Assembly (NCBI GenBank): GCA_963665525.1 | Contig: OY762280.1 | Coordinates: 3,948,084-4,012,083, forward strand | Origin: Bacteroidales bacterium | GTDB taxonomy: Bacteria > Bacteroidota > Bacteroidia > Bacteroidales > UBA12077 | DNA: 64,000 nucleotides | Reading direction: 5' to 3' | Part shown: positions 11,952-55,417 of the stretch, in pieces | Layout: each line of letters opens with the position of its first letter | Numbering within the stretch: position 1 is the first letter of the stretch | The notes under the pieces: generated by a model | What the model was told of the DNA's origin: nothing | Databases searched by the model: none | Seen by the model: the letters and a program-made list of their open reading frames with translations, nothing else | Program-made: the position numbers and the translations under genes

Positions 11952-11955
11952 CACA

Positions 11956-19697: not shown

Positions 19698-19853
19698 TAG
19701 ATAAATTTTAGAGTCCAAATTACTTATTATTAGTGTAATTTGAAAGAAGTTCGTTTTTTAAATCCGTATTCAAAAAATCACATTTTTATTTTTAGTATTT
19801 TAGCCAATGCTCTTAGCTTTTTTAAAGGTGCTGGAATACTGTATAATAGATTT

Positions 19854-36178: not shown

Positions 36179-36191
36179 GAGTAAAATCATA

Positions 36192-36803: not shown

Positions 36804-36861
36804 CCGTATTATTCATTAATTTGCACTTTTAAATAGAATTAATTTTAAACTCAGATATAAG

Positions 36862-37242
36862 ATGAAAGTAAAGAAGTATTTAGTTTGGATGATGATGGTT
36901 CTTGCAGTTGCTATTGTAGCTTGTGAAGATGATGAACCAACCGAATCTTGCGATAGCGAAGATTTGTCTGCTGATTTTCAATGCCCTGAAGATGTTGATG
37001 CAATAGCTACTTTTTGTAGTGATGGTACAAATAGATCATACTATACTTTTGGTGGTACCGATTATTATTGTACAGGAGTGGAGGCATCAACTTGCGACGC
37101 TGCTTTAAATACGATAAGTAATTTATTACTTGAGGCAGGATGTAGTTCAAAAAAGAAATCAATGGAGGCTGGACTAATTAAGTTAACTACTATGGCAGAA
37201 AACTTGCTCGAAGAAGTGAGAACAGGTTCTGTTTGTGAGTAG
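36862..37242 (+). CDS. Cys-rich acidic lipoprotein, unknown function
   Basis: The lipobox AIVAC is followed by EDDEPTE. The mature part has eight further Cys. I recognise no family. Confidence 0.55.
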   Translation: MKVKKYLVWMMMVLAVAIVACEDDEPTESCDSEDLSADFQCPEDVDAIATFCSDGTNRSYYTFGGTDYYCTGVEASTCDAALNTISNLLLEAGCSSKKKSMEAGLIKLTTMAENLLEEVRTGSVCE

Positions 37243-37263
37243 TACTTACTCTAAAGATAAAAG

Positions 37264-37293
37264 AAAACGGACAAATTTTATTTGTCCGTTTTT
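37264..37293. terminator. Bidirectional terminator between convergent genes
   Basis: The stem aaaacggacaaa / tttgtccgtttt is 12 bp with a 5-nt loop, and A/T runs flank both sides. Confidence 0.8.
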
Positions 37294-37313
37294 ATATTGT
37301 TAGTTTTTACTTT

Positions 37314-37844
37314 TTAGTCTTTTGAAGAGAAAGAAAACTTTTTTTTTTGCTTCTTAAGTTTTGCTTCAAGCTTTTCACCACGTAAGTTAACTCCAATAAT
37401 AGTACCTTCACCATCAATTAAATAACTGACAGGAATACTTTTTACTCCATAGGCCTGGGCAGCAGCATTTTTCCACCCTTTTAAATCGCCAACATGGTAA
37501 GGCCAATCTAGCTTATCGTCTTGAATTGCTTTTTCCCAAAAAGCTTTATGAAAATCAAGAGAAACACTAAGAACCGTAAATCCATTGCCGTTTTTAAATT
37601 TTGCATCCTTGTATTCATGGTAAGCTTTAACAATATTTGGATTTTCTTTTCGACATGGCTTACACCATGCAGCCCAAAAATCAATTAAAACCAATTTACC
37701 TTTTAAGTCCGATAATTGAAACTCTTCACCTGAAATTAAATTTAAGTTTATTTCTGGTGCTTTATCACCAACTTTAAAATCTTGACTAAAAGAATTAAAT
37801 GCTATTAAACTAAGCGCAAAAAGAATAATCTGTTTTGTTCTCAT
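37314..37844 (-). CDS. TlpA/ResA-family thiol-disulfide oxidoreductase
   Basis: It has a signal peptide and the motif LIDFWAAWCKPCRKENP, with thioredoxin-fold length. Confidence 0.9.
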   Translation of the reverse strand: MRTKQIILFALSLIAFNSFSQDFKVGDKAPEINLNLISGEEFQLSDLKGKLVLIDFWAAWCKPCRKENPNIVKAYHEYKDAKFKNGNGFTVLSVSLDFHKAFWEKAIQDDKLDWPYHVGDLKGWKNAAAQAYGVKSIPVSYLIDGEGTIIGVNLRGEKLEAKLKKQKKKFSFSSKD

Positions 37845-37930
37845 TATAAAAAACTTCTAAAAATTATCACCTTGCTAAGATACATAATATATGAATAACG
37901 CTTGTATCAATATTTTGTTTTAGAAAGAAA

Positions 37931-42564: not shown

Positions 42565-42752
42565 TGTTCTATTATATTATTGTCATATAAGAATAGTACA
42601 AACATACAAGATAAATTAATTCATGTCAAGTTTTTTTGAATGTTTTTTTGATTAAGATTCTGAGGATACTATAGATAGAGGTGTTTAAAAAAAGAAATCA
42701 CCACTAAATTATTGTGATGATCTCCTTTTAACTAAATAAACAACTAAATTAA

Positions 42753-43802
42753 TTATGTGGTTTTAATTAATTTATCGAAATACATTGCAAACGAGCGATA
42801 TAAAAAGTGAGTCCATTTACCAAACGGAACTATTATTACAGCCCACTGTACAAGAACTATTAAATGGAATAAATACATCCAAAGGTTGTTTTCGATAATA
42901 TTTAAATCGATAAAAACTCTTACAATAAATGCTGTTAATCCCATTAAGAATAGCCAGATTACAAAAAACCAGTCCGATGGTTGTGAGAACTTGTTTACTT
43001 CTCTGTTTTTTCTAATTCTTCCAATCATAAATATGAATGTAATTGCAAAAATTGCAATACTTTCAATATATCCTAAAAGAATAATAAACATGTTTTCTGT
43101 CCCAAACCAATCTAGAACAACGGTAGTAAAAAGTAAAGCCAGATAACCAAATACAAGTATCATATGCATTAGCCAACGTCTATAACTATCGTCGCAACCC
43201 AAAGTTCGCTTTTGAGTAAACATATGAATAAACAGTTCTTTGGCTGTTAACAGATAGGTTTTAAATTTTACTTTTTTGCCTGGTTTTAATATTACAAACC
43301 ACCACATTCGTGCTAAGTTAGGAATAAGTATAACTGCAAAAACAGCAGCAATAGCAAGCATTTCGAATGTATGTCCAAAGTGCATAATTGCTTCGGTATT
43401 AAAATTTAGTTTAAAACTAAACCAAATAACTGCGATAGCAGTAGCAATAAATGCAAACAGACTAAAAAATAATGATTTGTATAATAGACCCGATAAACCG
43501 GTCCAGTCGTATTTTGCAGTAAGCCATCTTCTTAACGACATCATTAATTCGCCAGGATTAGCTTCTCGCGGACAAGTACTTGCACAATCGCCGCAATAAT
43601 AACATAACCAAGGATCTAATGATGATGTAATTTTCTGATCTAACCCAAGAACACTGGCACGCACCATTTTTCGTGGGAAAGAATTGTCTTTATCAGATAA
43701 GCTGCATACAGCAGTACAATTCCCGCAATTATAACACGCATTAAAATCGTTGTTACCGTATTTGAAGATTTCTTTTGCAAATTTAGGATTTATTCTTGCC
43801 AT
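42753..43802 (-). CDS. QmoC-like subunit: HdrC-type 2x[4Fe-4S] domain fused to a 6-TM cytochrome-b-like (HdrE/NarI-type) membrane domain
   Basis: It has two ferredoxin-type motifs (CYNCGNCTAVC and CYYCGDCASTCP). About six hydrophobic helices follow, carrying candidate haem-ligand His residues (HFGH, MHMIL, FHLIV, WTHF). Confidence 0.8.
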   Translation of the reverse strand: MARINPKFAKEIFKYGNNDFNACYNCGNCTAVCSLSDKDNSFPRKMVRASVLGLDQKITSSLDPWLCYYCGDCASTCPREANPGELMMSLRRWLTAKYDWTGLSGLLYKSLFFSLFAFIATAIAVIWFSFKLNFNTEAIMHFGHTFEMLAIAAVFAVILIPNLARMWWFVILKPGKKVKFKTYLLTAKELFIHMFTQKRTLGCDDSYRRWLMHMILVFGYLALLFTTVVLDWFGTENMFIILLGYIESIAIFAITFIFMIGRIRKNREVNKFSQPSDWFFVIWLFLMGLTAFIVRVFIDLNIIENNLWMYLFHLIVLVQWAVIIVPFGKWTHFLYRSFAMYFDKLIKTT

Positions 43803-43807
43803 ATGAT

Positions 43808-44086
43808 TTACTTTTTCAATTTGTAAAAATAGTATTCATCCATATCATCAATTTCCCCGGTTTCAATACTTCCGTATTTTTGCAAAGTCATTAAATGATA
43901 GGTGACTATATCAAAAGGAATACCTGTTTCTTTAGCAATTTGAGGAATGGTTTTATCTTCCGCTTCGAGAGCTTTCAGGATTTGTTTTTTTATCCTGTTA
44001 AACTCTTTCATTTTTTCTTTTACTTCATCGGAAACTTTCCTCGTTTTCTTAATAATGTCTATTGTTTTTTCCATAATATCTTGCAT
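43808..44086 (-). CDS. Small winged-helix DNA-binding-like protein (Cys-free)
   Basis: 92 aa. The pattern RIKKQILKALEAEDKTIPQIAKETGIPFDIVTYHLMTLQKYGSIE looks like an ArsR/MarR-type wHTH. The gene lies 2 nt and 5 nt from its neighbours inside the operon. Confidence 0.55.
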   Translation of the reverse strand: MQDIMEKTIDIIKKTRKVSDEVKEKMKEFNRIKKQILKALEAEDKTIPQIAKETGIPFDIVTYHLMTLQKYGSIETGEIDDMDEYYFYKLKK

Positions 44087-44088
44087 TA

Positions 44089-46023
44089 TTAATCAATTAA
44101 AGCTTCAATCATACTTTCCATTTCTTTGTCTGTGTATCCAATTAAGTCAATTGCATTTTCAGGACAAACAGGTAAGCACATTCCGCATCCTTTACATAAT
44201 GATTTATTTACAACAGCAACCTCTTTACCATCGGTTGTAGTTTTTGAAATAGCATCGTACGGACAAGCGTTAGAGCAGTTATCACACCACGAACATTTAT
44301 CGTTATGAATAACGGCCATGGTTGGTTCAAGTTCAATTTCGCCTAAGCTAACCAAAGAGTTTGCTTTAGATGCAGCCGATAGTGCCGATTTTACCGATTC
44401 GGTAATATTTAAAGGAGCCTGACAAGCACCTGAAATTAATACTCCATCGATAACGGTTTCTACAGGACGTAGCTTAGGATGTATTTCGTTAAAGAATTTA
44501 TCTCTACCAACAGGAACTTTAAGTAAGTTAACAATGCCTTCGTATTCTCTAGGAACCATTCCGGTTACTAAAACAACTAAATCAGCATTAATTTCTACTT
44601 CTTCGTTGTCGGTTAAAATATCTTTAATTTTAACTATAGTTTCGTTGCCAACATATTGAACTTCCGGAGGAGAATCTTCGAAAGATTGTAAGAAAATATC
44701 GCCAGCTTCGGATGCTTGATGATAAAGTTTCTCTTGCTTTCCGTAAGTTCTTATTCCACGGTTAAAATGGAAGTTATTAATGTTTGGATATTTTTCTTTA
44801 ACAAGAATCGCGGTATGAATTGCTGATGTACAGCAATAACGCGAGCAATATTTATTAGGCCCATCAACCTGACGACTACCAACACAATAGATGTAAGCTA
44901 TATTTTTAACTTCTTGATGATTGTATAATAATTTATCATTATTAAGTTCAATTAATCGCTTAAATTGCTGAAGTGTAATTACATTACTTACCTCATGGTA
45001 TCCAAATTCGCCTTTTTCAGGTTCATAAGGGTTAAATCCGGTACAAAGCTGAATAGCTCCAACAGTAATTTCTGTTTCGGTTTCAGTTTGTTCAAGATCA
45101 ATATCATCGCATATGGCCACACATTCGCCACATTTAGTACAAGCTTTATAATCAATTGCAGGAATTTCAGGAAACTCACTACAGTAGTTTTTAAAAATAG
45201 CTTTACGTTTTGTGATGTTAAAATTGAAATCGTCATCAACCTCAACAGGGCATACTTCAATAGCTTTTTGGAACTTCTCTTTATCAAGTTTGCAATCGGG
45301 TTTAATATAGCGTGGAATAGTTTTTAATTTAAGACTATATTCTCCAACACTACCTTTTTTCTCAGCAATTTCGGTTCCGGTATAAAGCGTAATTTTTGGA
45401 TGAGAAATAATTTCATTGTATAAACGAGATACTACTTCTTGTCCGGTTTCATTAGTTGTAAACAATACGTTCCATTGAGAGGTACGACCACCAACAAAAT
45501 GTTCGCGCTCAATTAAATGAACAGTCGTTCCCATTTCGGCAAGTTCCAAAGCAGCACGCATTCCTGCAATACCAGCACCAACAACAGCAATGGCATTTTG
45601 CGATGGAATTTTAACAGGAGTAAGTTCTTTTGAATATTTTACTCTTTCAATTCCTCCCTGAACTAATTTTATGGCCTTTTCGGTTGCCATTGGGGCATTA
45701 TCGGAATGTGCCCAGGAGCCTTGTTCACGGATATTAACCTGAACGTAATTGTAAGGATTTAACCCGGCGCGTATCGCTACATTTCTAAATGTAAACAAGT
45801 GTAATTTTGGAGAACAAGATGCAACAACTATAGCATCCAAACTTTGTTCTTTGATATCGTTAGCAATTTCTTGTTGTGTGGAATCGGCACAGGCAAACAT
45901 GGTTGTTTTTGCCAGTGTAACTCCTTCAACTTTTGCGGCAGCTTCTTTTACTTTTTCAACATCTACATAGTCGGAAATATTCGAGCCGCACATGCATACA
46001 TATACTCCAATTTTATTTTTCAT
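44089..46023 (-). CDS. HdrA-like FAD/FeS oxidoreductase (QmoB-like but lacking the MvhD domain)
   Basis: It has an N-terminal CMCG motif, the dinucleotide fold VVGAGIAGMRAALELAE, the HdrA signature CVGSRQ...YCSRYCC and a C-terminal 2x4Fe-4S (CSWCDNCSNACP, CKGCGMCLPVCP). It overlaps the upstream gene by 11 nt. Confidence 0.85.
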   Translation of the reverse strand: MKNKIGVYVCMCGSNISDYVDVEKVKEAAAKVEGVTLAKTTMFACADSTQQEIANDIKEQSLDAIVVASCSPKLHLFTFRNVAIRAGLNPYNYVQVNIREQGSWAHSDNAPMATEKAIKLVQGGIERVKYSKELTPVKIPSQNAIAVVGAGIAGMRAALELAEMGTTVHLIEREHFVGGRTSQWNVLFTTNETGQEVVSRLYNEIISHPKITLYTGTEIAEKKGSVGEYSLKLKTIPRYIKPDCKLDKEKFQKAIEVCPVEVDDDFNFNITKRKAIFKNYCSEFPEIPAIDYKACTKCGECVAICDDIDLEQTETETEITVGAIQLCTGFNPYEPEKGEFGYHEVSNVITLQQFKRLIELNNDKLLYNHQEVKNIAYIYCVGSRQVDGPNKYCSRYCCTSAIHTAILVKEKYPNINNFHFNRGIRTYGKQEKLYHQASEAGDIFLQSFEDSPPEVQYVGNETIVKIKDILTDNEEVEINADLVVLVTGMVPREYEGIVNLLKVPVGRDKFFNEIHPKLRPVETVIDGVLISGACQAPLNITESVKSALSAASKANSLVSLGEIELEPTMAVIHNDKCSWCDNCSNACPYDAISKTTTDGKEVAVVNKSLCKGCGMCLPVCPENAIDLIGYTDKEMESMIEALID

Positions 46024-47311
46024 GAGTACCTCCTCTCAAGTAGCCTGCAGTTTCTGAGGAAGCTGCTCCGGCCGATAATATTGAATCTGGGATATCCATT
46101 GGCCCTGATGCTGTTCCTGCTACATAAACCCCATCAATATTGGTTTGTGCAGGGTTGGCAAGTAAATCTCTTTGTTGAACATAATTAAATTGATCTAACT
46201 CAAGATTGTTGTTAAACATTGATTTAACACCATCGTTGGCTAAAATACCAGTCGATAAAACAACCATATCGTGATTCGCTTCTTTAACAGTTCCACTTTC
46301 AATATCCTCGTATCTTAACTTAAGGTCTCCATCTTCAATTTCTTCTATTTTACCAATCTTACCTTTAATAAAGCTTACACCCATATCTTTTGCTTGTTGG
46401 TAAAACTCGTTAAATCCTTTACCAAACGACCGTATGTGTAAGTAATAAATTGTGATATCGGCCATAGGTAATGCTCCCATTAAAAGCTGGGCTTGCTTAA
46501 TTGAATACATACAGCAAACTTGTGAACATATTGGATTTCCAACAGTTTCGTCGCGCGAACCAGCACATAATACATAAGCAATATTGTCGGGCATTTTACC
46601 ATCTTTAGGTCTTAGAACAGTATTGTATGGACGTGTTGGAACTAGCTGACGTTCCATTTGCATGGCTGTAAGTACATTTTTGAATTTTCCAAAACCGTAT
46701 CTTGGAATATTTTCTGCATCGAATAGTTTATATCCGGTTGCAATAATTACCGATTTTGCCTGAATAGCTATGTCTTGCTTTTCTTGAGTAAAATCGATAC
46801 AGTTTGCAGGGCAGGCTTTTTCACATGCTCCGCATAAGCTACAGTTTTCAATATCTATTGCAGCAACCCTGGGATTGGCAATACTAAAAGGTACATAAAC
46901 AGCTTTACGGCCAACTAAATCCCATTGATATTGGTCTTTTACCACTACAGGGCATTTGTCTTCGCAAATCTGGCATCCTGTGCATGATTCTTCATCAACA
47001 TAGCGTGGATACTTGGTTAAGGTAGCGCGAAAATCAAATTCAGACTTTTTATCAATATTACTTACCTGGCTGTTGGTATAAATAGTTATATTTGGATGTC
47101 TTGCTGTTTCGGATACTTTAGGTGTTGTAATACATGCAGAACAATCTAATGTTGGAAAAACCTTACTTAAGTGGATCATTTTACCACCCAGGGATAAGTC
47201 TTTTTCAACAATAATGACTTTATAACCTTGGTTTGCAAGGTTAAGAGCTGCTTCTTCTCCAGAAATTCCTCCACCAATAACAAGAACATCGTATTCTTCT
47301 GATTTTGTCAT
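46013..47311 (-). CDS. HdrA-like FAD/FeS oxidoreductase (QmoA-like)
   Basis: It has VLVIGGGISGEEAAL, FPTLDCSACITTPK and CAGSRDE...CSQVCCMY, matching HdrA signatures, plus two inserted ferredoxin motifs (CTGCQICEDKCP, CSLCGACEKACP). Confidence 0.9.
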   Translation of the reverse strand: MTKSEEYDVLVIGGGISGEEAALNLANQGYKVIIVEKDLSLGGKMIHLSKVFPTLDCSACITTPKVSETARHPNITIYTNSQVSNIDKKSEFDFRATLTKYPRYVDEESCTGCQICEDKCPVVVKDQYQWDLVGRKAVYVPFSIANPRVAAIDIENCSLCGACEKACPANCIDFTQEKQDIAIQAKSVIIATGYKLFDAENIPRYGFGKFKNVLTAMQMERQLVPTRPYNTVLRPKDGKMPDNIAYVLCAGSRDETVGNPICSQVCCMYSIKQAQLLMGALPMADITIYYLHIRSFGKGFNEFYQQAKDMGVSFIKGKIGKIEEIEDGDLKLRYEDIESGTVKEANHDMVVLSTGILANDGVKSMFNNNLELDQFNYVQQRDLLANPAQTNIDGVYVAGTASGPMDIPDSILSAGAASSETAGYLRGGTHEK

Positions 47312-47327
47312 ATTGAGTAATTTTTAG

Positions 47328-47729
47328 TTAATTCTCCGAAGCTTTAGATAATTGCTCATGAAATGTTTTCATGTGCTTTACAAAAGCTTCTGCACAAACG
47401 GAACATATAGCAGCCATTTTTAATCGGGCAGGATCCATATTTTTTTCTTTCATGATAGCATGAGTCGCTTGCACTATTTTTGATGTTTTTTCAGAACAAG
47501 TATCGCTATAAGGACAGTCGGTTCCGTCAGCAGCAATAAAAACACCATCGAATCCTTTTTCGAAAGCATGTAAAATCCATTGTGGTTTTACCGAGCTAGA
47601 ACAAGGAACATTAACAGTATAAACTGTTGCAGGATAATGTTTTTTAAGGAGCCCCGCCATATCGATCGCGGGGTCCGAAATTTTCTCAGTTGAAAAAACC
47701 AGAATCTTTGGATTCTTTAATTTTTCCAT
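47328..47729 (-). CDS. MvhD/FlpD-like iron-sulfur protein (hydrogenase delta-subunit family)
   Basis: 133 aa. The layout ILVFST...VPCSS...FDGVFIAADGTDCPYSDTC...AICSVCAEAF is typical of MvhD-type [2Fe-2S] proteins that partner HdrA. Confidence 0.8.
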   Translation of the reverse strand: MEKLKNPKILVFSTEKISDPAIDMAGLLKKHYPATVYTVNVPCSSSVKPQWILHAFEKGFDGVFIAADGTDCPYSDTCSEKTSKIVQATHAIMKEKNMDPARLKMAAICSVCAEAFVKHMKTFHEQLSKASEN

Positions 47730-47732
47730 CGT

Positions 47733-47984
47733 TTATCCTTTCTTCATGTAAATTTTGAAGTATCCTGACTCTTCTACTGTACCTAAGTAGTCGTGGCCTT
47801 TTTTAGCAGCCCACTTAGGGATATCTTTTTTAGTTCCTTCGTCGGCAGAAAGAACTTCCATAATTTGACCTGAAGTTATTTCGCCAATTGCTTTTTTAGC
47901 AGCTAAAAGTGGTCCTGGACATGCTGTTCCTCTTGCGTCGACTGATTTGTCAACATTTAATGCTTGTAATTCTTCTGTTGTCAT
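47733..47984 (-). CDS. TusA-family sulfurtransferase (second copy)
   Basis: 83 aa with the CPxP active-site motif in VDARGTACPGPLLAAKKAI. Confidence 0.9.
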   Translation of the reverse strand: MTTEELQALNVDKSVDARGTACPGPLLAAKKAIGEITSGQIMEVLSADEGTKKDIPKWAAKKGHDYLGTVEESGYFKIYMKKG

Positions 47985-48004
47985 AACTATATCTCCTTTA
48001 AATT

Positions 48005-48418
48005 TTAAATAAATAAATTAACGTCTGTTTCTTGAATAGACTCAATGTATTCTCCAATTCCACAAATGTCATCAACCACATCAATGAAATCTTCGATTTT
48101 TTCTCCACCGGCAATTTTACCTGCTAAACTGCAGATATGGATTTTTACTTCGGTCATTTCTTTTGCCATTTCGAAAAACTCAATCCACGATGGTGTTGAT
48201 AAGCTTTCGAGAGCAGCTTTAAATTCGTCGGGTGTTTGAACATCTTCGCTCATATTTGATATATCGGCAGCTTTACTTTTTAAGAATGCATGACCTGCAT
48301 TTACCAGAACAAATAAATCTACTTCCATATCGTCGGCAGCAGCACCACTTAAAATAACGCCAACACTTGTTAATTTATCGATGCTTGATGTGCTCAAACC
48401 TATTGTCATTTTTGCCAT
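48005..48418 (-). CDS. DsrE/DsrF-like sulfur-relay family protein
   Basis: 137 aa with an alpha/beta pattern (VGVILSGAAADD...DLFVLVNAGHAF...KIHICSLAG) typical of the DsrE_2/COG2210-type relatives of DsrE. The candidate active Cys is in HICS. Confidence 0.75.
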   Translation of the reverse strand: MAKMTIGLSTSSIDKLTSVGVILSGAAADDMEVDLFVLVNAGHAFLKSKAADISNMSEDVQTPDEFKAALESLSTPSWIEFFEMAKEMTEVKIHICSLAGKIAGGEKIEDFIDVVDDICGIGEYIESIQETDVNLFI

Positions 48419-48443
48419 AATAATTCAATTTTTGTATTAAAGA

Positions 48444-48947
48444 TTAACCTCCACAGCCTCCGCTCGATTCTTCTTTTTTAGGTTCTGCAACAGGTGCAGC
48501 TTCACCCATTCCTTGTTCAACTAATTCAGGATAAGTTGCTTCCCAATCGAACCAGCTAAAATCAAGCAAATAACAATCGGAATATTTTAATAATTCCAGA
48601 GATTGAACAGCTAATGCACCGCTACCCATTTCGTTACCAATTACTAAAGTTTTTATTCTACGATTTGATATTTTACCCGAGAATTCCAGTAATCCGCGAG
48701 GAATATGAATTGATCCCGGAATGTGGCCAAGTATAAAATCATAATCTTCGCGACAATCAACAATTTGAATCTCAGTGTGATTATCAATTAGATTTTTTAA
48801 TTCTTCCATGCCCAATGTTTTGATTTCTGCTTTTGCAGCAGCTATCATATCATCTACATTTTCATAAACTGTATTATCTTTCTGAACACAGCTTGATAAT
48901 AAGATGATTGACAATAAGGTCGGAAAAATGAATTTTATAAATCTCAT
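48444..48947 (-). CDS. Rhodanese-domain lipoprotein without active-site Cys, ending in GGCGG
   Basis: It has the lipobox LLSSC and a rhodanese core (IVDCREDYDFILGHIPGSIHIPRG). The active-site loop reads LVIGNEMGSGALA, with no Cys. A Pro/Glu/Ala linker follows, then the C-terminal SSGGCGG and a stop. Confidence 0.8.
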   Translation of the reverse strand: MRFIKFIFPTLLSIILLSSCVQKDNTVYENVDDMIAAAKAEIKTLGMEELKNLIDNHTEIQIVDCREDYDFILGHIPGSIHIPRGLLEFSGKISNRRIKTLVIGNEMGSGALAVQSLELLKYSDCYLLDFSWFDWEATYPELVEQGMGEAAPVAEPKKEESSGGCGG

Positions 48948-48958
48948 AATTACTTATT

Positions 48959-49765
48959 TTATAATTTCCATTCGTTGTATGCTCCGTCGTAAACTTTTAC
49001 GTTAGGATACTCAAGAACTGAAGTTAATGCAAGATATACTATCCCGGCTCTTACGCTGGTTGCACAGTAAAGAATAATTTCTTTGTCTTTGGTAATACCT
49101 GCACCATTAAATAATGCTTGTAAATCTTCTTTTGATTTAAGTTTACCGCCATCGGCTAAAACATTTTTATACTCTAAGTGCTTAGCACCTTCGATGTATC
49201 CTTCTGCCCATTCTGTATCGTCTCTAACATCAACAAGAATAGCCGACTTTAATTTAGATTTTACATAAGCTTTATCGGCAAAGATTTTAGCATTTACTTT
49301 AGGAGTAAATGTTACAGCAGCTTTTTTTGTTGCAGCATTTGTAACTGGACCTCTTGCGGTTCTCCATGCTTGCATATGACCATCCATAACTTTCACATCG
49401 TTGAATCCTAAATATTTTAGAATCCAGTATAAACGGCCTGCACCTTTATTTGAACCTGTATCGTAAATGATGATTTTTTTAGCTGGATCAATTCCTTTTT
49501 CTCCTAAGATAGTAGCTAGTTCAGCTGGAGATTTAAGAATTCCTTTAGGATCAGTTGTGCTTGCTAAGTCGTTAATGTTCACATTAACCGCATTTCTGAT
49601 ATGCACTTTTGCATAATCGGCTGGAGTTCTAGTAGATACAATAACAGCATCTTTGCTATTCACTAATTTCTTAGCTTCGGCAGCAGAAATTAAATCCTGA
49701 GCAAAAGAAAGATTTGCGAATATAGCTACTAATAAAAGACTAAATAATATGTTTTTTAATTTCAT
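48959..49765 (-). CDS. Secreted two-domain rhodanese (thiosulfate sulfurtransferase type)
   Basis: It has a signal peptide (LSFA|QD). The N-domain loop IYDTGSNKGAGR is inactive (Asp in place of Cys). The C-domain loop LYCATSVRAG is active. Confidence 0.9.
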   Translation of the reverse strand: MKLKNILFSLLLVAIFANLSFAQDLISAAEAKKLVNSKDAVIVSTRTPADYAKVHIRNAVNVNINDLASTTDPKGILKSPAELATILGEKGIDPAKKIIIYDTGSNKGAGRLYWILKYLGFNDVKVMDGHMQAWRTARGPVTNAATKKAAVTFTPKVNAKIFADKAYVKSKLKSAILVDVRDDTEWAEGYIEGAKHLEYKNVLADGGKLKSKEDLQALFNGAGITKDKEIILYCATSVRAGIVYLALTSVLEYPNVKVYDGAYNEWKL

Positions 49766-49776
49766 AATTTCGTTTA

Positions 49777-50823
49777 TTAAAATTTAACCTGAACTTGCAA
49801 TACAACCTGATCGTTAGGAATTTCTAAAGCTTGTTCTGCTTTGTATCTGTAATTTAATTGAACACGTGTCCAATCGTTTAAGAAATAGTTTAATCCAAAT
49901 GTCATGATTGTTTCAGAGTTGTCGTCGATATCTACGTCAGAATCAAAGCATTCAAATTTGAATACTGGTTGTAAATTCCATCTTGTAGTATACATTGCCT
50001 GTGCAAAATAACCGCTACGAGTTACACCACCAGTATGATATTCGATTGGTGTACCATCGCAACCACCACCAGTTGTGTAATCGCCAGTATCATCGGCCCA
50101 AAGATATTCTGCCTGAAATAAGAAATTTCCGGTTTTTATTTGTACTTCGCCACCTAAACGAGTTTTCTCGTTATCTTCTTCGGCACCTGTTTTACCATAG
50201 GCAAAACTACCGCCTACCTGAAGAAAATCAACAGGAGCAAATGTTAATCTTCCTTTTATACTTTTAGCTTTGTTTTCATCTTCGAAACCTTTTTCATAAT
50301 CATTCATTAAAGCTAAATAGTAGTTGATTTTAGAGTCGAGAAGACTACCAAAAACCATAGCTCCCATATCGCGTTGCGGACCTGCTAGTTCGTCAACAGC
50401 TTTTGAACGATAGATAGTATGAAGAGACTGACAAGGTGTGTTTTGCTCTAAACTTAATGGCGATTTAAACTGACCAAAGCTTATTTTGGCAAAATCGTAT
50501 CGTGAATAAGTCACAAATGCATCTAGTAACCATGGCGATCCTGATTTGAATCGAGAGAAATCAACCATGAAGAAATAACTTACATCGTAAGGAATATTTC
50601 CAACTGCAGCTATTCTTGCACGGTTAAAGGTAAAGCTGTTAGCATCTTTACCATCGGTAGTTTGATAATATTCCCACTGTGGCTGAATGTAACCTTTAAT
50701 GCTTACTCCTTCGTCGGAAGAAGCTTCCATACATCCTTGTGCAGAAACAAGCTGTGTAGATGTTAATACCACAAGAATTGAGAGGCTAAATATTGATAAT
50801 ATCTTTTTAATCATTTTTTTCAT
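49777..50823 (-). CDS. Outer-membrane porin, phosphate-selective porin O/P-like family
   Basis: It has a signal peptide (LVSA|QG), an N-terminal FTFNRARIAAVGNI block like the porin O/P family, a beta-strand periodicity and the C-terminal ...VLQVQVKF. Confidence 0.75.
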   Translation of the reverse strand: MKKMIKKILSIFSLSILVVLTSTQLVSAQGCMEASSDEGVSIKGYIQPQWEYYQTTDGKDANSFTFNRARIAAVGNIPYDVSYFFMVDFSRFKSGSPWLLDAFVTYSRYDFAKISFGQFKSPLSLEQNTPCQSLHTIYRSKAVDELAGPQRDMGAMVFGSLLDSKINYYLALMNDYEKGFEDENKAKSIKGRLTFAPVDFLQVGGSFAYGKTGAEEDNEKTRLGGEVQIKTGNFLFQAEYLWADDTGDYTTGGGCDGTPIEYHTGGVTRSGYFAQAMYTTRWNLQPVFKFECFDSDVDIDDNSETIMTFGLNYFLNDWTRVQLNYRYKAEQALEIPNDQVVLQVQVKF

Positions 50824-50832
50824 ATTTTTAAT

Positions 50833-50866
50833 TAAAAAATAAGCTAAGTAGCTTTTGCTACCCAGC
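50833..50866 (-). terminator. Intra-operon terminator/attenuator-like hairpin (minus strand)
   Basis: The minus-strand RNA reads gcugggtagc-aaaa-gcuacuuagc, a 10-bp stem with two G-U pairs, followed by uuauuuuuu. On the plus strand the same positions would be A-C mismatches. Confidence 0.45.
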
Positions 50867-50877
50867 TTAAATATTTT

Positions 50878-51843
50878 TTATTCTAATGGTAAGTCAGTAA
50901 TTGCTGTAGCATCCCACTTGTGTGAAGTAAGATTATCATAAATCATACTATTAACACCATTTTTTAAACTGTGTGGAGTATAACCTAATACATATAAATA
51001 AGCTGTTACCATTGAAGAAGTTTGTCCTGTCCAGCAATATGTTACCACATCTTTTGATGGATCAAGATACATATATTCTCCACCAGCTAATGTTAAAGGC
51101 TTAATTCGGTATGCACCAGAAATGTGTCCGTAAGTTGTAACATCAGCCGCATCCCAGAAATTATTTACATAGTAACTTCCTGGACTAGCTAATACGTCAG
51201 ACCCAGCAACACCTTGGAAACCAGCTGTTAATAATGCAGTAACTCTTGCGGCAAGAATTTCAGCACCTGTTCCTGTAGTTGTAATATCAGGATCGTCGAA
51301 TTGAGTAGTTTGAGTACTTACAGCACCAGGAGCAGCAATCCAGTTAGGGCTATCAATTGTATTACATGAACCACTCCATGAGTCAAGGCTGGTATGCCAT
51401 CCACTCATTCCCCATTTTAATACTTTGGCATCAGTATAACCGCTTAAACGTAAAGCAACGGTTCCATGTCCTGCTCCTTGTCCGCTATAACAAACAACAA
51501 TAATTGGTTTTCCGGCAGCATTACCTGCTTCGGTAACAATATTACCTAAAGTTGAATTTACTGCTCCAGGAATATGACTTGTGTTATATGCGTCAGAAGA
51601 TCTGATATCAATTATATAATAAGAGCTTAGGTTATCTTTTATAGCATCAGCAGTAGTGATCCAGTCAGTTAGTATATTATCCAAATCCAAATCGTTAGCT
51701 ACTAAGTACTCTTTTAGAATCTGAAATTCAGTGTCGGTTTGACGGTCTGGAGTTGCATCGTCATCACTGTCGTCTTTACAAGATGTTAAAACAAATGCAG
51801 GAATAATTAAAATTAATAATGCGTACTTTAAAAACTTTTTCAT
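50878..51843 (-). CDS. Lipoprotein with two rhodanese-like domains and an acidic post-Cys tract
   Basis: The lipobox VLTSC is followed by KDDSDDDATPD. Two rhodanese modules carry the loops VVCYSGQGAGHG and TYCWTGQTSS. I chose the ATG at 51843, because the longer ORF overlaps the upstream gene. Confidence 0.8.
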   Translation of the reverse strand: MKKFLKYALLILIIPAFVLTSCKDDSDDDATPDRQTDTEFQILKEYLVANDLDLDNILTDWITTADAIKDNLSSYYIIDIRSSDAYNTSHIPGAVNSTLGNIVTEAGNAAGKPIIVVCYSGQGAGHGTVALRLSGYTDAKVLKWGMSGWHTSLDSWSGSCNTIDSPNWIAAPGAVSTQTTQFDDPDITTTGTGAEILAARVTALLTAGFQGVAGSDVLASPGSYYVNNFWDAADVTTYGHISGAYRIKPLTLAGGEYMYLDPSKDVVTYCWTGQTSSMVTAYLYVLGYTPHSLKNGVNSMIYDNLTSHKWDATAITDLPLE

Positions 51844-51878
51844 AGTATTATAAATTTTGGTTAGTATTTTCTTATTTA

Positions 51879-52355
51879 TTATCCTCCACAACCACCTGAC
51901 TCAGGTTGCTTAGTAATAGCAGGGGCTCCGCCTGAAAATTTCATCCAACCACCTTTAAGGTTAGATATATTTTCGAATCCCAATTTTTGAAGTGATTTTG
52001 CAGCAAGAGCACCACGGCCACCTACTTTGCAATACACAATAATTTTATCAGTTTTTAGAGGGGTGTACATGAATTGCTCTTCCCAGAAATATTCATCAAG
52101 AATAAGGAATTCTAATTCACCACGAGGAATAGAGAATGATCCCGGAATATTTCCTGCTTCGTATTCGGAAGGTTGTCTTACATCTATTAAAAGGAATTCT
52201 TCTCCATTATCAATCATCGATTTTAAAGTATCGACAGATATTTCATTTATTTCGGTTGCAACAACACTAGCTAATTCTTTACCATCTTCATATATGGCAG
52301 TACAAGAAGAAAACAAGAAGATGAGCAGTGCTGCGATTGATATATTAAATTTCAT
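51879..52355 (-). CDS. Rhodanese lipoprotein with intact active-site Cys, ending in GGCGG
   Basis: It has the lipobox LFSSC, the core LIDVRQPSEYEAGNIPGSFSIPRG and the active loop IVYCKVGGRGALA. The C-terminus reads ...APAITKQPESGGCGG followed by TAA. Confidence 0.85.
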   Translation of the reverse strand: MKFNISIAALLIFLFSSCTAIYEDGKELASVVATEINEISVDTLKSMIDNGEEFLLIDVRQPSEYEAGNIPGSFSIPRGELEFLILDEYFWEEQFMYTPLKTDKIIVYCKVGGRGALAAKSLQKLGFENISNLKGGWMKFSGGAPAITKQPESGGCGG

Positions 52356-52381
52356 AATTTTGTTTTTAATAGTTTCAATAA

Positions 52382-53596
52382 TTAAAAAGCACTGAATTTT
52401 CCTGTGCGTTCATTCCACTTAACAAATACATACCATATTAGTATTACTACAAGAACTAGAATAAAAGCTCCAGCATAGCCTAAATAGTCAGGCAAATAAT
52501 TTTTGAACTTCATTGTATGAGGGAGTGCATCAACGATTGCAGGAACAATATATTTTTTAGAAATAGGGGATACAAGTAAGAATCCTAATGCAGCCATCCA
52601 TAATTTAACCTGCCCTTCGCCTACACGCCAAAGTGTTCCAACGGCACATCCTCCGGCAACAGTCATTCCTAATCCAAAAATAAATCCTCCTAAAAGACCA
52701 CGTAACCAGAAATGTCCAAAAACCCAGGTCATTTCACGAGCACGAATAGTAGCATCGCCTGCACCAATACCAAAATATTTAATGGCAGTGAAACCTATTA
52801 ATGTAATAACTAAACCGGCCATTACTCCAACAGAACCATCGCTTTCGCCTGTCATAAAAGGATCGCGGAATGCTTTAACGATACAAAAGCGTGATCGTTG
52901 GCAAATGAGTCCCATTAATAATCCTGAAATTATAAACCAGGCTAATACGCCATTGGTTCCGGCAACTCTATATGCAAGAACAAAAGTTCCGATAGAAACG
53001 ATCCATCCTAACCAGATTTGCCATTTTCCTGTTTTTTCTGATGCAGCAAGGAAAGTAAAACTTTTACCTGTGCTAAAAGAAGGGAACTTTTCCATTTCCC
53101 AAAGCAAGTATTTAAGAGCAATTATAGTACCAGCAAAAAGTCCTATAGTAAAAATAATTGCTCCACCTGATAATGCTGGGACACCCGAGAAAAATGAACC
53201 AATTGTACAACCTAATCCCAGAGTTGCTCCAATAGCCATTAATGCACCTCCAATAAATCCTTTTATTAATTCTCCTTTAGGAGGTATTCGTAAGGCAAAT
53301 TCTTTTGAGAAGAGAGCTCCGGCAAATGATCCTAAAACCAGTATCAGGCAAAGCATACCATAAAGACTGGTACTTGTAGGTGCAGCATTTTCAAAAGCAG
53401 AAATACCCAGGAGCTTAAAAATATTCTCACCCCAGTTATTAATACCACCACTAGCACCCCAAGGACTTTTTACGGTAAATAGTAAAATGTTTAGTAGTCC
53501 CAGAGTAACACCACCAACCCATACTGGCCAGTGTTTGGCGAAAAAAATATTAAATAATTCGCGAAGTATTCCTGGCTCTTTTTGTTGATCAGCCAT
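52382..53596 (-). CDS. YeeE/YedE-family sulfur-compound (thiosulfate-type) transporter
   Basis: 404 aa and polytopic. It has the repeated Cys-containing motifs LGLGCTIGSFFSG, GLICQRSRFC and VAGGCAVGTLWRVGEG that are characteristic of YeeE/YedE. Confidence 0.9.
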   Translation of the reverse strand: MADQQKEPGILRELFNIFFAKHWPVWVGGVTLGLLNILLFTVKSPWGASGGINNWGENIFKLLGISAFENAAPTSTSLYGMLCLILVLGSFAGALFSKEFALRIPPKGELIKGFIGGALMAIGATLGLGCTIGSFFSGVPALSGGAIIFTIGLFAGTIIALKYLLWEMEKFPSFSTGKSFTFLAASEKTGKWQIWLGWIVSIGTFVLAYRVAGTNGVLAWFIISGLLMGLICQRSRFCIVKAFRDPFMTGESDGSVGVMAGLVITLIGFTAIKYFGIGAGDATIRAREMTWVFGHFWLRGLLGGFIFGLGMTVAGGCAVGTLWRVGEGQVKLWMAALGFLLVSPISKKYIVPAIVDALPHTMKFKNYLPDYLGYAGAFILVLVVILIWYVFVKWNERTGKFSAF

Positions 53597-53605
53597 TTTT
53601 ACCTC

Positions 53606-53836
53606 CTACTTTTTTTGTATTAGAAACCTGAAAACACCATTTTCAACTTCACCTTCTTCAAGTAAAGCGTTTCCTGTTTTTTCACACCATTTTGGTAGGT
53701 CTGATTTTGTTCCAGGATCGGTTCCTAACATTTCAAGCACATCTCCAGAACCTAATCCTTTAATTGCTTTTGCCAGTTTCATCATTGGCATAGGACATGA
53801 AAGCCCTTTTACGTCTAATGTTTCTTTAATTTCCAT
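53606..53836 (-). CDS. TusA-family sulfurtransferase (first copy, paired with YeeE)
   Basis: 76 aa with the motif LDVKGLSCPMPMMKLAKAI (CPxP). It lies 9 nt upstream of the YeeE gene. Confidence 0.9.
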   Translation of the reverse strand: MEIKETLDVKGLSCPMPMMKLAKAIKGLGSGDVLEMLGTDPGTKSDLPKWCEKTGNALLEEGEVENGVFRFLIQKK

Positions 53837-53954
53837 ATCAATAAAATTTAGTGATTATTTCGTTGGAGTAAAGGTTGTTAATTAATTAACACAAGTAAAG
53901 AAAACCTTTGTGATGTTCATCCAGTATAAATCATGAGATTGGGTAGCAAGAAAA

Positions 53955-53968
53955 CTGATTTAGATCAA
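53955..53968. promoter_or_regulatory. Candidate Crp/FNR-type operator (cTGAT-N4-ATCAA)
   Basis: CTGATTTAGATCAA matches 9 of 10 positions of TTGAT-N4-ATCAA. It lies in the divergent region between the sulfur operon (ATG at 53836) and the Crp/Fnr gene (ATG at 54026). Confidence 0.4.
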
Positions 53969-54025
53969 CTTTTTTGCTGATTTATTGTTATATTTATATC
54001 ATTAAAGCCTATTAATGTTGTACTT

Positions 54026-54721
54026 ATGGAAAAGATATCTGCTTTAAATAGTTGTACAGTAAGCAATGCAAAATGTATTTGTTTTGATTTATTGACGCCA
54101 GAACAAAGAGAATTGATTGAAAAAAATTCGATTGATGTTCGATATAAGAAAGGTGAAGTAATTTGTAAACATGGTACTTTTGCTCCACATGTTATTCTAC
54201 TTAAAGAGGGCTTGGCAAAAATTTATTTAGAGGGTTTAAATGATTCCTTAATCTTAAAAATAATTACTTCGGGTAATTTAATTGGGTTAACTTCTGTTAT
54301 GGAAGATAATAATGTGTTTCATTATTCAGCATCGGCATATGTTGATTCTTCTGCCAGCTTAATAGATATCAATATCTTTAGAAAAATTCTTAAAGAAAAT
54401 GCCGAATTTGCAAATTCGGTAATAAATATTTTATGTGAAAATTCCTTACAAACTTTCGGAAGATTTTTCTGCTTAACACATAAACAACTATATGGTAGAA
54501 TGGCAGATATTATCTTATGTTTATCTGAAAGAATCTTTAAAGAAAAAAGTTTTGTTTTAAATCTTACAAGAAAAGAGCTGGCTGAATTAACAGGGATGTC
54601 AACGGAAAGCGTTATACGAATGCTTAAGAAATTTAAAGATGACGGAATAATAGAACTGCAAGGAAAGGAAGTCGTTATTTCAAATTATGATTTATTGCGT
54701 AAGATTAGCGAATATGGATAA
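54026..54721 (+). CDS. Crp/Fnr-family transcriptional regulator
   Basis: It has a cNMP-binding-like beta-barrel and a C-terminal HTH (TRKELAELTGMSTESVIRMLKKF). The N-terminus carries the Cys residues CTVSNAKCIC. Confidence 0.9.
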   Translation: MEKISALNSCTVSNAKCICFDLLTPEQRELIEKNSIDVRYKKGEVICKHGTFAPHVILLKEGLAKIYLEGLNDSLILKIITSGNLIGLTSVMEDNNVFHYSASAYVDSSASLIDINIFRKILKENAEFANSVINILCENSLQTFGRFFCLTHKQLYGRMADIILCLSERIFKEKSFVLNLTRKELAELTGMSTESVIRMLKKFKDDGIIELQGKEVVISNYDLLRKISEYG

Positions 54722-54724: not shown

Positions 54725-55417
54725 CTATCCATTTTTACTTATCTCTTTTAGTAGTTCCAGGTTTAAGATCTTTATTTTTTTACCCTTTAGCTGAATAATT
54801 TTTTCATCATTAAATTCTGATAATATTCGGGCAACACTTTCAATGGCCATTCCGGAAAGCTCGGCTAAATCTTTTCGATTAACATATGAAAATACATCAA
54901 TTGATTTAAACTCTTCTCTGTTTAAGTATAATAATACATTAGCTAATTTTCCATTTAATTGTTTTAAACCAAGGTTTAAACATTTGGTTAACATAATATT
55001 GTAGTTTTTACAATACCAACTTGCTAATTCGCGAGAAAAATCGCAGCTCATAGAGATTAAGTCTTTAATGGCATTTTGATTAATTGCACATACTTTTGTT
55101 TCAGTAATTGCAGCTGCTGAGAAATAATAGGAATCGTCGCCGTATAAAGAGGTTAATCCAATAAAATCATGCGGTTTTAGTAGTTTGATGATAATATTTT
55201 TACCGGGACCTTCGATGTATACTTTTACTAATCCATTAAGAACATATAAAATATCAGATACACGTGTGCCTTCTTTAATTATTGTTTCTCCTTTGTTATA
55301 TGTAACATGGGTTTTGACTAGATTATTAAACTCATCAATTATTTCAATATCCTGGATAAAACATTCCGATTTTCTGTTGCAATCTGTACAGTTAGTTTTT
55401 ATTAAATATCTGTCCAT
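54725..55417 (-). CDS. Crp/Fnr-family transcriptional regulator (paralog, convergent)
   Basis: It has the same architecture, with the HTH NRKDLAELSGMAIESVARILSEF and the N-terminal Cys cluster CTDCNRKSEC. Confidence 0.9.
   Translation of the reverse strand: MDRYLIKTNCTDCNRKSECFIQDIEIIDEFNNLVKTHVTYNKGETIIKEGTRVSDILYVLNGLVKVYIEGPGKNIIIKLLKPHDFIGLTSLYGDDSYYFSAAAITETKVCAINQNAIKDLISMSCDFSRELASWYCKNYNIMLTKCLNLGLKQLNGKLANVLLYLNREEFKSIDVFSYVNRKDLAELSGMAIESVARILSEFNDEKIIQLKGKKIKILNLELLKEISKNG

Follow-up and report, generated by a model that had tools for sequence, protein, structure and literature searches.

A modular Bacteroidales gene cluster offers a candidate route for zero-valent sulfur from the cell surface to a Qmo/HdrA-like quinone-linked complex

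By what means bacteria take zero-valent sulfur in insoluble or polymeric form across the outer membrane is an unsolved question, explicitly so in a 2026 study of the Geobacter polysulfide reductase (PMC13510729), and orphan complexes of the Qmo type, found in the absence of adenosine 5′-phosphosulfate (APS) reductase, lack an assigned role (PMC10504309). A cluster of 14 genes lying in a 64,000-nucleotide stretch of DNA from an uncultured Bacteroidales bacterium (hereafter referred to as the window, and part of a 131-kb metagenome contig) provides concrete candidates for the former and a candidate role for the latter. Read on the minus strand from position 53836 down to 42753, its consecutive open reading frames (ORFs) encode a TusA (gene 1), a YeeE/YedE-type channel (gene 2), envelope rhodaneses and a porin (genes 3-7), a DsrE2-like protein (gene 8), a second TusA (gene 9) and a Qmo- and HdrA-like electron module (genes 10-14; Table 1). 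We put at about one in two the probability that the products of this cluster take up zero-valent sulfur at the cell surface, relay it from cysteine to cysteine and reduce it in the cytoplasm by means of a quinone-linked complex.

In the mechanism that we propose, sulfane sulfur, with polysulfide, elemental sulfur or polythionates as its predicted sources, would be brought into the periplasm by the double-rhodanese lipoprotein (gene 4), the porin (gene 5) and the secreted two-domain rhodanese (gene 6). The periplasmic rhodaneses would load this sulfur, as persulfide, on the C-terminal GGCGG arms of the products of genes 3 and 7, which would deliver it to the three-cysteine YeeE channel for acceptance by the gene 1 TusA on the cytoplasmic side, persulfide transfer being a prediction at each of these steps. 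The DsrE2-like protein and the second TusA would then present the sulfur to a membrane-anchored complex made up of the MvhD-like protein, a heterodimer of the two HdrA-like flavoproteins and the QmoC-like protein (genes 10-12 and 14). There, at a putative S-S cleavage site, flavin-based confurcation would convert carrier-bound sulfur to sulfide, the electrons being supplied by menaquinol and probably by reduced ferredoxin as well. The result would be an electron sink or a form of respiration for a fermentative anaerobe, with all modules placed under a dedicated Crp/Fnr-type regulator.

The cluster was compared with a total of ~160 related loci, designated here by L numbers. A scan of species-representative genomes, one per species, returned 325 places with relatives of gene 12, the best 80 of which were analyzed; loci harboring the envelope set were gathered through distant homologues of gene 3 and through a metagenome scan with an alignment of the porin. 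The best 80 were mostly Bacteroidales metagenome assemblies, many of them with names pointing to sulfidic or anoxic habitats. Among cultured organisms, the core is carried by Labilibaculum euxinus and Ancylomarina longa, for example. In all 80, contig permitting, the electron-module genes of the core follow one another in the same order (MvhD, the 432-residue HdrA, the 644-residue HdrA, the winged-helix protein and QmoC), with TusA upstream of this set, a DsrE2-like gene before TusA in most loci, and a divergent Crp/Fnr gene upstream, these three being counted as part of the core as well; among the flanking ORFs, annotation was restricted to these conserved neighbors. Some core loci add a fuller DsrE2-like protein of 181 residues or a DsrE protein of family PF02635. 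Conservation within the cluster is highest in the second TusA (69-95% identity across the 80 species). A survey of co-occurrence in Bacteroidota, as suggested in an initial annotation of the window made from sequence alone, thus recovered the complete envelope set in 11 of the best 80 loci, but also showed core and envelope genes to be separable. Rhodanese-porin genes are found elsewhere in the locus in L016 and L028, and in L025 and L037 the envelope genes, inverted in orientation, are reduced to TusA, YeeE and the two armed rhodaneses. In four loci (L034, L041, L048, at positions 9380-15631, and L069), QmoC is directly followed by a PhsABC-like set consisting of a PhsA-like molybdoenzyme with a twin-arginine translocation (TAT) signal, an Fe-S subunit and an NrfD/PsrC subunit, together with tail-bearing rhodaneses and a YeeE split into two genes. 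The two rhodaneses of these loci are membrane-anchored, with a Lys/Arg-rich linker and the terminus AASGGC; the molybdoenzyme scores 469 bits on the PhsA model, the cut-off of which is 694.

The envelope cassette in turn recurs in the same order (tail rhodanese, double-rhodanese lipoprotein, porin, periplasmic double-rhodanese), at 40-50% identity to genes 3-6, beside other partners. In 82 loci anchored on the porin, the cassette adjoins PhsABC-like genes in 13, lies behind an octaheme cytochrome and a PhsC-like cytochrome b in 8, accompanies TusA-YeeE and an HdrA module in 14, and stands alone in readable context in 13. The octaheme cytochrome belongs to the octaheme tetrathionate-reductase (OTR) family (TIGR04315, 559 bits against a cut-off of 375; PDB 1sp3, E = 8e-117); the loci concerned are from other Bacteroidota (L084, 6734-12428; L085, 6757-12524; L105, L116, L121, L126, L131 and L166), and this context of the cassette is unmentioned in the literature searched. 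The HdrA modules that follow the TusA-YeeE-rhodanese-porin set are diverse: L104 (5950-14173) has an HdrA-MvhD fusion, an HdrC, a genuine HdrB with a CCG domain and a 1482-residue fusion of domains of the pyridine-nucleotide-disulfide-oxidoreductase type to an HdrA-like part, L099 (4747-8608) has an FrhB-like protein, HdrA, NuoE and NuoF, and L115 and L119 have further sets of HdrA, MvhD and FrhB-like proteins, L119 (12186-21059) with two of the latter. The type of rhodanese tail tracks the partner, reading GGCGG or a one-residue variant thereof beside YeeE and a Qmo-like core as in the window, GGC beside periplasmic enzymes, and GGCG or GG-TGA-D in other YeeE/HdrA variants. The cluster is thus a composite of separable modules, and the order of its core is conserved beyond chance and recurs in many species genomes and metagenome contigs. 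The position of the cassette beside OTR, PhsABC-like enzymes and other HdrA modules favors a reductive system that takes up oxidized or zero-valent sulfur and whose terminal enzyme, in the window, would be the Qmo-like complex.

Alignment of orthologues revealed an invariant or near-invariant cysteine at every proposed hand-over point. The cysteine of the rhodanese active-site loop is present, and invariant or nearly so, in gene 3, in both domains of gene 4 (76/76 and 82/82 orthologues) and in the C-domain of gene 6 (Cys234, 77/77); it is absent from gene 7 and from the N-domain of gene 6, which is inactive, with Asp in this place. Gene 7, termed Cys-less in the initial annotation, indeed has an active-site loop devoid of cysteine, but harbors four cysteines in the protein overall, and looks like a catalytically dead, pure carrier; in the loci examined, its partners were only the DsrE2-like/HdrA core or YeeE genes, and never OTR or Phs. 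The products of genes 3 and 7 both end in SGGCGG, the tail cysteine being kept in 45/46 and 47/47 orthologues, respectively, and 64 of 120 gene 3 homologues end in GGCGG, most of the others having a glycine-flanked cysteine at or near the C-terminus. The linker that precedes the motif varies between orthologues and abounds in Ala, Pro, Glu and Lys, as expected for a flexible arm. SoxY likewise ends in GGCGG, carries its sulfur-binding cysteine on a flexible arm, and is acted upon in its sulfur-loaded form by partner enzymes (PMC6067878). The loading of the arms of genes 3 and 7 with sulfur is predicted. Unlike in SoxYZ, the arm is borne here, as judged from Pfam, by a lipid-anchored rhodanese fold and not by a SoxY fold, in a context of import and reduction rather than oxidation, and neither SoxZ nor other Sox families were annotated in the window; the likeness to SoxY looks like convergence, not homology.

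In many of the gene 4 orthologues listed, an acidic stretch follows the lipobox cysteine and resembles the export signal of Bacteroidota lipoproteins; because of this resemblance, the gene 4 lipoprotein is probably surface-exposed. In the porin, Cys31 and Cys131 are kept in 92/92 and 93/93 orthologues, and position 255, within an invariant GGGC loop, is occupied by Cys in 75 orthologues, with a TGA codon in its place in 14 others. A single-sequence AlphaFold model of the porin was not usable, with a predicted local distance difference test (pLDDT) score of 32. Geobacter sulfurreducens offers a comparable pair in ExtH, a rhodanese-like lipoprotein, and ExtI, an outer-membrane protein resembling phosphate porins, which are encoded together beside a quinol-side cytochrome b and MccSep (ExtKL), the terminal polysulfide reductase needed for sulfur respiration; by which route polysulfide passes the outer membrane there is, according to the authors who studied MccSep, unknown (PMC13510729, PMC5877670). 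The window proteins are nonetheless distinct, their NCBIfam scores lying far below the cut-offs of ExtI (porin; 46.6 versus 150) and ExtH (rhodanese; 64.6 versus 200). ExtI has one cysteine whereas the window porin has three invariant ones, including that of the GGG(C/U) loop, the terminal enzyme proposed here is cytoplasmic and of the HdrA type, and the cassette adds a periplasmic double-rhodanese and armed rhodaneses.

The in-frame TGA found exactly at porin position 255 in 14 metagenome loci (L099, L100, L101, L104, L108, L115, L117, L118, L130, L149, L155, L160, L162 and L164) has a counterpart within a few residues of this position in L125 and L128. A hairpin resembling a selenocysteine insertion sequence (SECIS), with G(G)U in its loop, starts ~13-17 nt past the porin TGA; the sequence of its stem varies among loci while pairing is kept, and the hairpin is absent from the Cys-encoding gene of the window. 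A tblastn search of the TGA loci with 28 query proteins yielded no other recurrent stop aligned to a cysteine. The TGA-bearing porin probably contains selenocysteine. A recoded genome, in which TGA would be read as Gly or Trp, was ruled out, no other recurrent in-frame TGA being present among the homologues of the 28 queries. In five of the TGA-porin loci (L099, L100, L101, L104 and L118), the tail of the gene 3 orthologue reads SGG-TGA-Asp-stop, and this TGA may stand for selenocysteine or, alternatively, for a plain stop codon. Since exchange between cysteine and selenocysteine is a classical mark of redox-active or nucleophilic residues, its probable occurrence at porin position 255 and possible occurrence in the rhodanese tail suggest that both cysteines are reactive. 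Rhodanese forms and one outer-membrane barrel of the MtrB/PioB type figure in a 2026 review of prokaryotic selenoproteins, from which the word "porin" is absent, and a Cys/Sec porin family was not found in selenoprotein reviews.

On the inner-membrane side, Cys238, Cys317 and Cys130 of gene 2 correspond in alignment to cysteines of the equivalent GC motifs in S. thermophila YeeE (6leo) and are conserved in 32/33, 34/34 and 31/31 orthologues, respectively. Gene 2 shares with YeeE/YeeD (TsuA/TsuB) and YedE/YedF the Sulf_transp channel, conserved pore cysteines and an adjacent TusA-like partner; the gene 1 TusA, whose Cys14 is invariant in 88/88 orthologues, suggests itself as the cytoplasmic partner of the channel. 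The two halves of gene 2 are, in contrast, swapped relative to S. thermophila YeeE, in a YedE-like order (residues 222-341 corresponding to 6-115, and 78-156 to 240-319, of the structure), and its NCBIfam scores of 93-95 bits for TsuA (cut-offs 400 and 645) and 136 bits for YedE/FdhT (cut-off 350) indicate a relative rather than an equivalog. We know of no YeeE channel preceded by periplasmic carriers with a Cys arm.

Beyond the channel, the carriers of the cytoplasm would be the short gene 8 protein and the second TusA. Gene 8 matches positions 70-156 only of the PF13686 profile, has no NCBIfam match, and retains Cys96 in 100% of its orthologues. Whereas DsrE2 of the Allochromatium vinosum type has two N-terminal transmembrane (TM) helices, gene 8 is devoid of TM segments and resembles a soluble, truncated form of the DsrE2B type. 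Cytoplasmic TusA and DsrE-family carriers encoded beside Hdr-like genes are a trait shared with the sHdr-LbpA system, and the DsrE (PF02635), DsrE2-like and TusA trio of some related loci resembles the dsrE3A-dsrE2B-tusA cluster (PMC4175335, PMC11094781). The sHdr-LbpA system differs in that LbpA, HdrB1/B2 and HdrC1/C2 (the HdrC1B1-A-hyp-C2B2 set) are absent from the window, and in that the complex is here membrane- and quinone-linked and predicted to be reductive.

The electron module is HdrA-like in sequence. Gene 11 matches HdrA structures with E values of 1e-104 to 1e-109 over core residues 146-566, and comprises the FAD domain, an inserted ferredoxin domain and an FPTLDCSAC motif, with the Cys pattern conserved. 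Gene 12 matches Methanothermococcus HdrA (5odc_A) end to end (E = 6e-123, residues 4-638 against 5-645), with an N-terminal four-Cys domain and a C-terminal 2x[4Fe-4S] domain, and its cysteines are 90-100% conserved; it stops after the C-terminal domain (positions 1-640 of 777 in the HdrA2 profile), with no fused MvhD. Gene 10 aligns with the C-terminal MvhD domain of HdrA2, and its five cysteines are invariant. Gene 11 has the FPT-DC-xC motif and is devoid of the N-terminal cluster domain, and the reverse is true of gene 12, a pattern that would fit an asymmetric heterodimer mimicking the HdrA homodimer of 5odc. The Cys-free gene 13 always lies between HdrA and QmoC, and is present wherever the contig reaches that position. 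Gene 14 matches the NCBIfam qmoC model NF038018 over its full length (4-360 of 360), with 159.5 bits against a cut-off of 300, and its N-terminus matches solved HdrC subunits. Its eight cluster cysteines are invariant, His144, His193, His213 and His332 are at least 97% conserved, His141 and His313 are 92% and 82% conserved, and hydropathy indicates six TM segments. An AlphaFold model built from 35 sequences (pLDDT 74) gave weak matches in a fold search, to EtfD and NarI, none of which reached E <= 0.001; a diheme fold of gene 14 is plausible.

With QmoABC, the quinone-interacting membrane-bound oxidoreductase of sulfate reducers and green sulfur bacteria, the module shares two adjacent HdrA-like flavoproteins, an MvhD-like component and an HdrC-like subunit with multiple TM segments and conserved His. 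It differs from it in that MvhD, which in QmoB is fused to the large subunit, is the separate upstream gene 10, in that both flavoproteins are closely similar to methanogen HdrA, in a qmoC score of about half the cut-off, in the inserted winged-helix gene, and in its conserved neighbors, TusA and DsrE2-like, no Sat/AprAB being annotated in the window. With the Mvh/Fdh-HdrABC complexes of methanogens it has in common a full-length HdrA with all cluster cysteines, MvhD and an HdrC-like domain, but HdrB, the subunit whose two CCG domains, with non-cubane clusters, form the disulfide-reducing site, is absent here, and the fusion of the HdrC domain to a membrane part makes menaquinone, and not a heterodisulfide, the likely high-potential partner. 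HdrA-type sequences combined with Qmo-type subunits and no CCG domain make the set Qmo-like in architecture and HdrA-like in sequence. A "type II" Qmo closer to true HdrA has been described from organisms without Apr or Dsr, its role being unknown (PMC10504309).

Whether the complex reduces or oxidizes its sulfur substrate had been left open in the initial annotation; the present evidence, although no proof, leans toward reduction, because the OTR and Phs partners are reductase families, because variants of the locus come with NuoEF or HdrBC, and because the regulator is of the Crp/Fnr type. The idea of capture followed by a persulfide relay and a quinone-linked terminal complex, likewise proposed at the outset, is strengthened by the conserved cysteines and by the cassette preceding OTR, PhsABC-like or HdrA modules, and weakened by the want of a CCG/HdrB subunit. 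This is one of several points that weigh against the mechanism put forward here: the Pfam and NCBIfam searches found no CCG (HdrB) domain in the 14 cluster proteins, and the window offers no other site recognized to cleave S-S bonds. The reducing power of menaquinol by itself does not suffice for the sulfur/sulfide couple, so that a hypothetical second donor of low potential, such as ferredoxin, has to be assumed together with confurcation; flavin-based confurcation has been proposed for QmoABC. Qmo complexes are, moreover, reversible and run in both directions in nature. In ~45 of the 80 loci, the core lies directly behind the regulator with no adjacent envelope or import genes, and may there act on sulfane sulfur formed internally; together with the rearranged or displaced envelope genes of other loci, this speaks against the indivisible 14-gene unit first envisaged. 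Nor is the single transcription unit assured, in view of the terminator-like hairpin and T-run that separate gene 4 from gene 5; this hairpin may uncouple genes 1-4 from the remainder, and the expression of the two groups (1-4 and 5-14) may differ. Lastly, Black Sea isolates from genera that carry a QmoC-like gene were described as fermenters, with no sulfur phenotype linked to the genes (PMC11129491). A more specific form of the proposal, in which the porin acts as a catalyst, SoxY-like arms dip into YeeE and an HdrB-less complex merges electrons from menaquinol and ferredoxin, sulfur remaining protein-bound across the whole envelope, is tentative and in our estimation rather doubtful.

The same genes could serve the opposite purpose. 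Qmo works oxidatively in green sulfur bacteria, and the S0/HS- potential lies about midway between those of menaquinone and ferredoxin, which makes bifurcation conceivable; the complex might then oxidize sulfide or carrier-bound sulfur with menaquinone, as a substitute for sulfide:quinone oxidoreductase (SQR), while YeeE, the armed rhodaneses and the porin would export sulfane sulfur, protecting the cell in millimolar sulfide. The many species in which the core occurs without import genes agree with this, as does the tolerance of carrier genera to 7 mM sulfide in the absence of sqr, for which the authors, in a passing remark on their Black Sea isolates, suspected an "Hdr system" in detoxification; yet sulfide oxidation was not seen in these isolates (PMC11129491). 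Elsewhere the cassette comes with NADH-linked HdrA modules and with enzymes of families known as reductases (OTR, PhsABC-like). As YeeE is known as an importer and fermenters have reductant in surplus, we regard export and detoxification as unlikely. A smaller likelihood still attaches to thiosulfate or polythionate as the cargo, bound to the carriers as thiosulfonate in the manner of Metallosphaera TusA/DsrE3A or of the YTD cluster, with the complex taking part in the reduction or disproportionation of thiosulfate to sulfite and sulfide. Thiosulfate is taken up by the YeeE/YeeD pair (structures 6leo and 8k1r), thiosulfonate is carried by DsrE3A and TusA (PMC4175335), clusters of YedE, TusA and DsrE mark disproportionation (PMC12998232), and the partner enzymes of other loci belong to tetrathionate and thiosulfate reductase families. 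Neither the window nor the related loci, however, yielded a sulfite-handling enzyme, sulfane sulfur is what rhodaneses and GGCGG arms typically handle, and the NCBIfam scores for TsuA and TsuB are far under their cut-offs.

Selenium or tellurium would be the substrate if the cassette and the YedE/YedF-like pair were to take up and reduce selenite, or to supply selenium. The best NCBIfam matches are indeed to the porin ExtI and the rhodanese ExtH of a selenite/tellurite operon and to the selenium protein YedE/FdhT, and some orthologues are probable selenoproteins; but all three scores, as given above, fall well under the curated cut-offs, the ExtKL enzyme that neighbors ExtH and ExtI is a polysulfide reductase which prefers polysulfide to selenite (PMC13510729), and the presence of a selenocysteine residue is uninformative on substrate. 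Since sulfur is indicated both by the DsrE2/TusA/HdrA context and by partners of the Phs and OTR types, we judge a role in selenium metabolism highly improbable. Equally little, or slightly less, credence is given to an assimilatory role, in which sulfur would be imported for cysteine, Fe-S clusters and thio-cofactors, and the Qmo-like complex would merely free sulfide from carrier persulfides. YeeE/YeeD does serve thiosulfate assimilation in E. coli, and TusA has biosynthetic roles, but the apparatus is large and quinone-linked for such a purpose, its regulation is of the Crp/Fnr type, and its cassette is interchangeable with respiratory-type reductases. In addition, the carriers of the cluster appear, from contig and isolate names, to inhabit sulfide-rich sites where sulfide is freely available (PMC11129491).

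The family of each part is known already, and so is, from sHdr systems, the principle of a relay feeding an Hdr-type complex. The literature searched, including full texts, held no description of the cluster or of a pathway of this composition, in line with what had been stated at the outset; nearest to it come the "Hdr system" remark (PMC11129491) and the note on type II Qmo (PMC10504309). Undescribed in these sources are a quinone-linked complex of the Qmo/HdrA type with TusA and DsrE2-like partners in place of AprAB, the joining of such a complex to YeeE import and to an outer-membrane rhodanese-porin cassette, and, at the level of single proteins, SoxY-like arms on rhodanese folds and a porin with a Cys/Sec site. 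Individual residues are thereby singled out, namely those of the GGCGG arms, porin Cys255/Sec and the YeeE cysteines. Were the uptake and reduction of zero-valent sulfur by this route borne out, common fermenters would join the reductive sulfur cycle in a manner invisible to surveys of dsr, apr, psr and sqr markers; and if sulfur were in addition protein-bound across the envelope and handed to an HdrB-less confurcating complex, this would amount to a new mode of elemental-sulfur respiration and explain how insoluble sulfur passes the outer membrane.

A divergent Crp/Fnr homologue adjoins the cluster in most related loci, and its Cys10 is kept in 63/63 and 35/35 family sequences in two sets of loci. 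A four-cysteine oxygen sensor of the FNR type was ruled out for this regulator, Cys10 being its sole invariant cysteine. The palindrome TGAT-N4-ATCA, the candidate operator, occurs exactly in 24/48 (L003-L081) and 22/36 (L084-L166) intergenic regions between regulator and operon, at a density of 2.9 per kb as compared to 0.087 per kb across the loci (~34-fold), and is often extended to GTGAT-N4-ATCAC. Regulator and palindrome precede every type of partner module alike.

Table 1 Features of the gene cluster and its surroundings (window positions)
Feature	Coordinates	Strand	Basis and remarks
Gene 1, TusA-like (CPMP)	53606..53836	-	PF01206, 86.7 bits
Gene 2, YeeE/YedE-type inner-membrane protein	52382..53596	-	PF04143 (Sulf_transp)
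Gene 3, lipoprotein rhodanese with C-terminal GGCGG arm	51879..52355	-	PF00581; lipobox visible; active-site Cys109
Gene 4, double-rhodanese lipoprotein	50878..51843	-	Two rhodanese domains; mature N-terminus C-KDDSDDD
Gene 5, porin O/P-like outer-membrane protein	49777..50823	-	PF07396/PF13609; Cys31, Cys131, GGGC255 loop
Gene 6, secreted periplasmic two-domain rhodanese	48959..49765	-	PF00581 twice; signal peptide visible
Gene 7, lipoprotein, rhodanese fold without active-site Cys, GGCGG arm	48444..48947	-	PF00581
Gene 8, short soluble DsrE2-like protein	48005..48418	-	PF13686 (DrsE_2), 34.1 bits, cut-off 25
Gene 9, TusA (CPGP)	47733..47984	-	PF01206; Cys22 100% conserved
Gene 10, stand-alone MvhD-like Fe-S protein	47328..47729	-	PF02662 (FlpD/MvhD), 104 bits
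Gene 11, HdrA-core flavoprotein (432 aa), QmoA position	46013..47311	-	HdrA structures
Gene 12, full-length HdrA-like flavoprotein (644 aa), QmoB position	44089..46023	-	5odc_A
Gene 13, winged-helix protein (92 aa), Cys-free	43808..44086	-	Weak HTH_5/HTH_Cmi2_C matches
Gene 14, QmoC-like, HdrC-like 2x[4Fe-4S] and 6-TM domains	42753..43802	-	NCBIfam qmoC
Crp/Fnr-family regulator, divergent	54026..54721	+	Pfam cNMP_binding and HTH_Crp_2
Second Crp-family paralogue	54725..55417	-	Pfam; conserved in close relatives only (L002, L003 and L006)
TGAT-N4-ATCA palindrome CTGATTTAGATCAA, candidate operator of the Crp/Fnr regulator	53956..53967		Motif enrichment
Hairpin (13 bp) and T-run between genes 4 and 5	50840..50869	-	Minimum free energy (MFE) -18.6 kcal/mol, z -5.3
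Terminator-like hairpin and T-run	42686..42728	-	MFE -16.3 kcal/mol, z -6.2; begins 25 nt past gene 14 stop

The layout of 14 minus-strand genes separated by 2-54 nt, with one overlap of 11 nt, was borne out provided that gene 4 is taken to start at ATG 51843, which gives the protein a regular lipoprotein signal peptide, and not at the TTG 51891 of the mechanical ORF list. The gaps from gene 1 to gene 14 are then 9, 26, 35, 54, 11, 11, 25, 20, 3, 16, -11, 2 and 5 nt, the overlap falling between the two HdrA-like genes (11 and 12). Every family named in the initial annotation for the 14 proteins was recovered in Pfam and NCBIfam searches and confirmed by structure matches of HdrA, HdrC and YeeE, and its statement that the window lacks a known terminal sulfur enzyme also stands, no Dsr, Apr, Sox, Psr/Phs or SQR genes and no sHdr-LbpA set being annotated there, including the part outside the cluster. 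The internal hairpin fills part of the 54-nt gap between genes 4 and 5, and equally strong hairpins unrelated to it in sequence lie at the same junction in L005, L009, L010, L028 and L032; candidate functions of the window hairpin are internal termination, attenuation or mRNA stabilization. The hairpin 3′ of gene 14 probably ends the transcription unit. Terminator predictions in total were at chance level, with these two strong hairpins standing out, an Rfam search of the window returned zero RNA-family matches, and a scan for sigma-70 promoters, a model which does not cover those of Bacteroidota, gave fewer matches than shuffled sequence.

The G+C content is 0.34-0.37 across positions 44000-54000, as compared to ~0.28-0.33 in the flanks. 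The remaining genes of the window encode peptidases, an efflux pump, a two-component system, a primase, a zinc ABC transporter and similar functions. Some 5 kb past the end of the cluster, at ~36100-37850 (18180-19871 in the L001 numbering), lie genes for thiol-disulfide oxidoreductases, namely of the AhpC-TSA/Redoxin type and of the Thioredoxin_4 family, the latter with a faint DsbA match, and a Redoxin gene is also found near the envelope cassette in L085.

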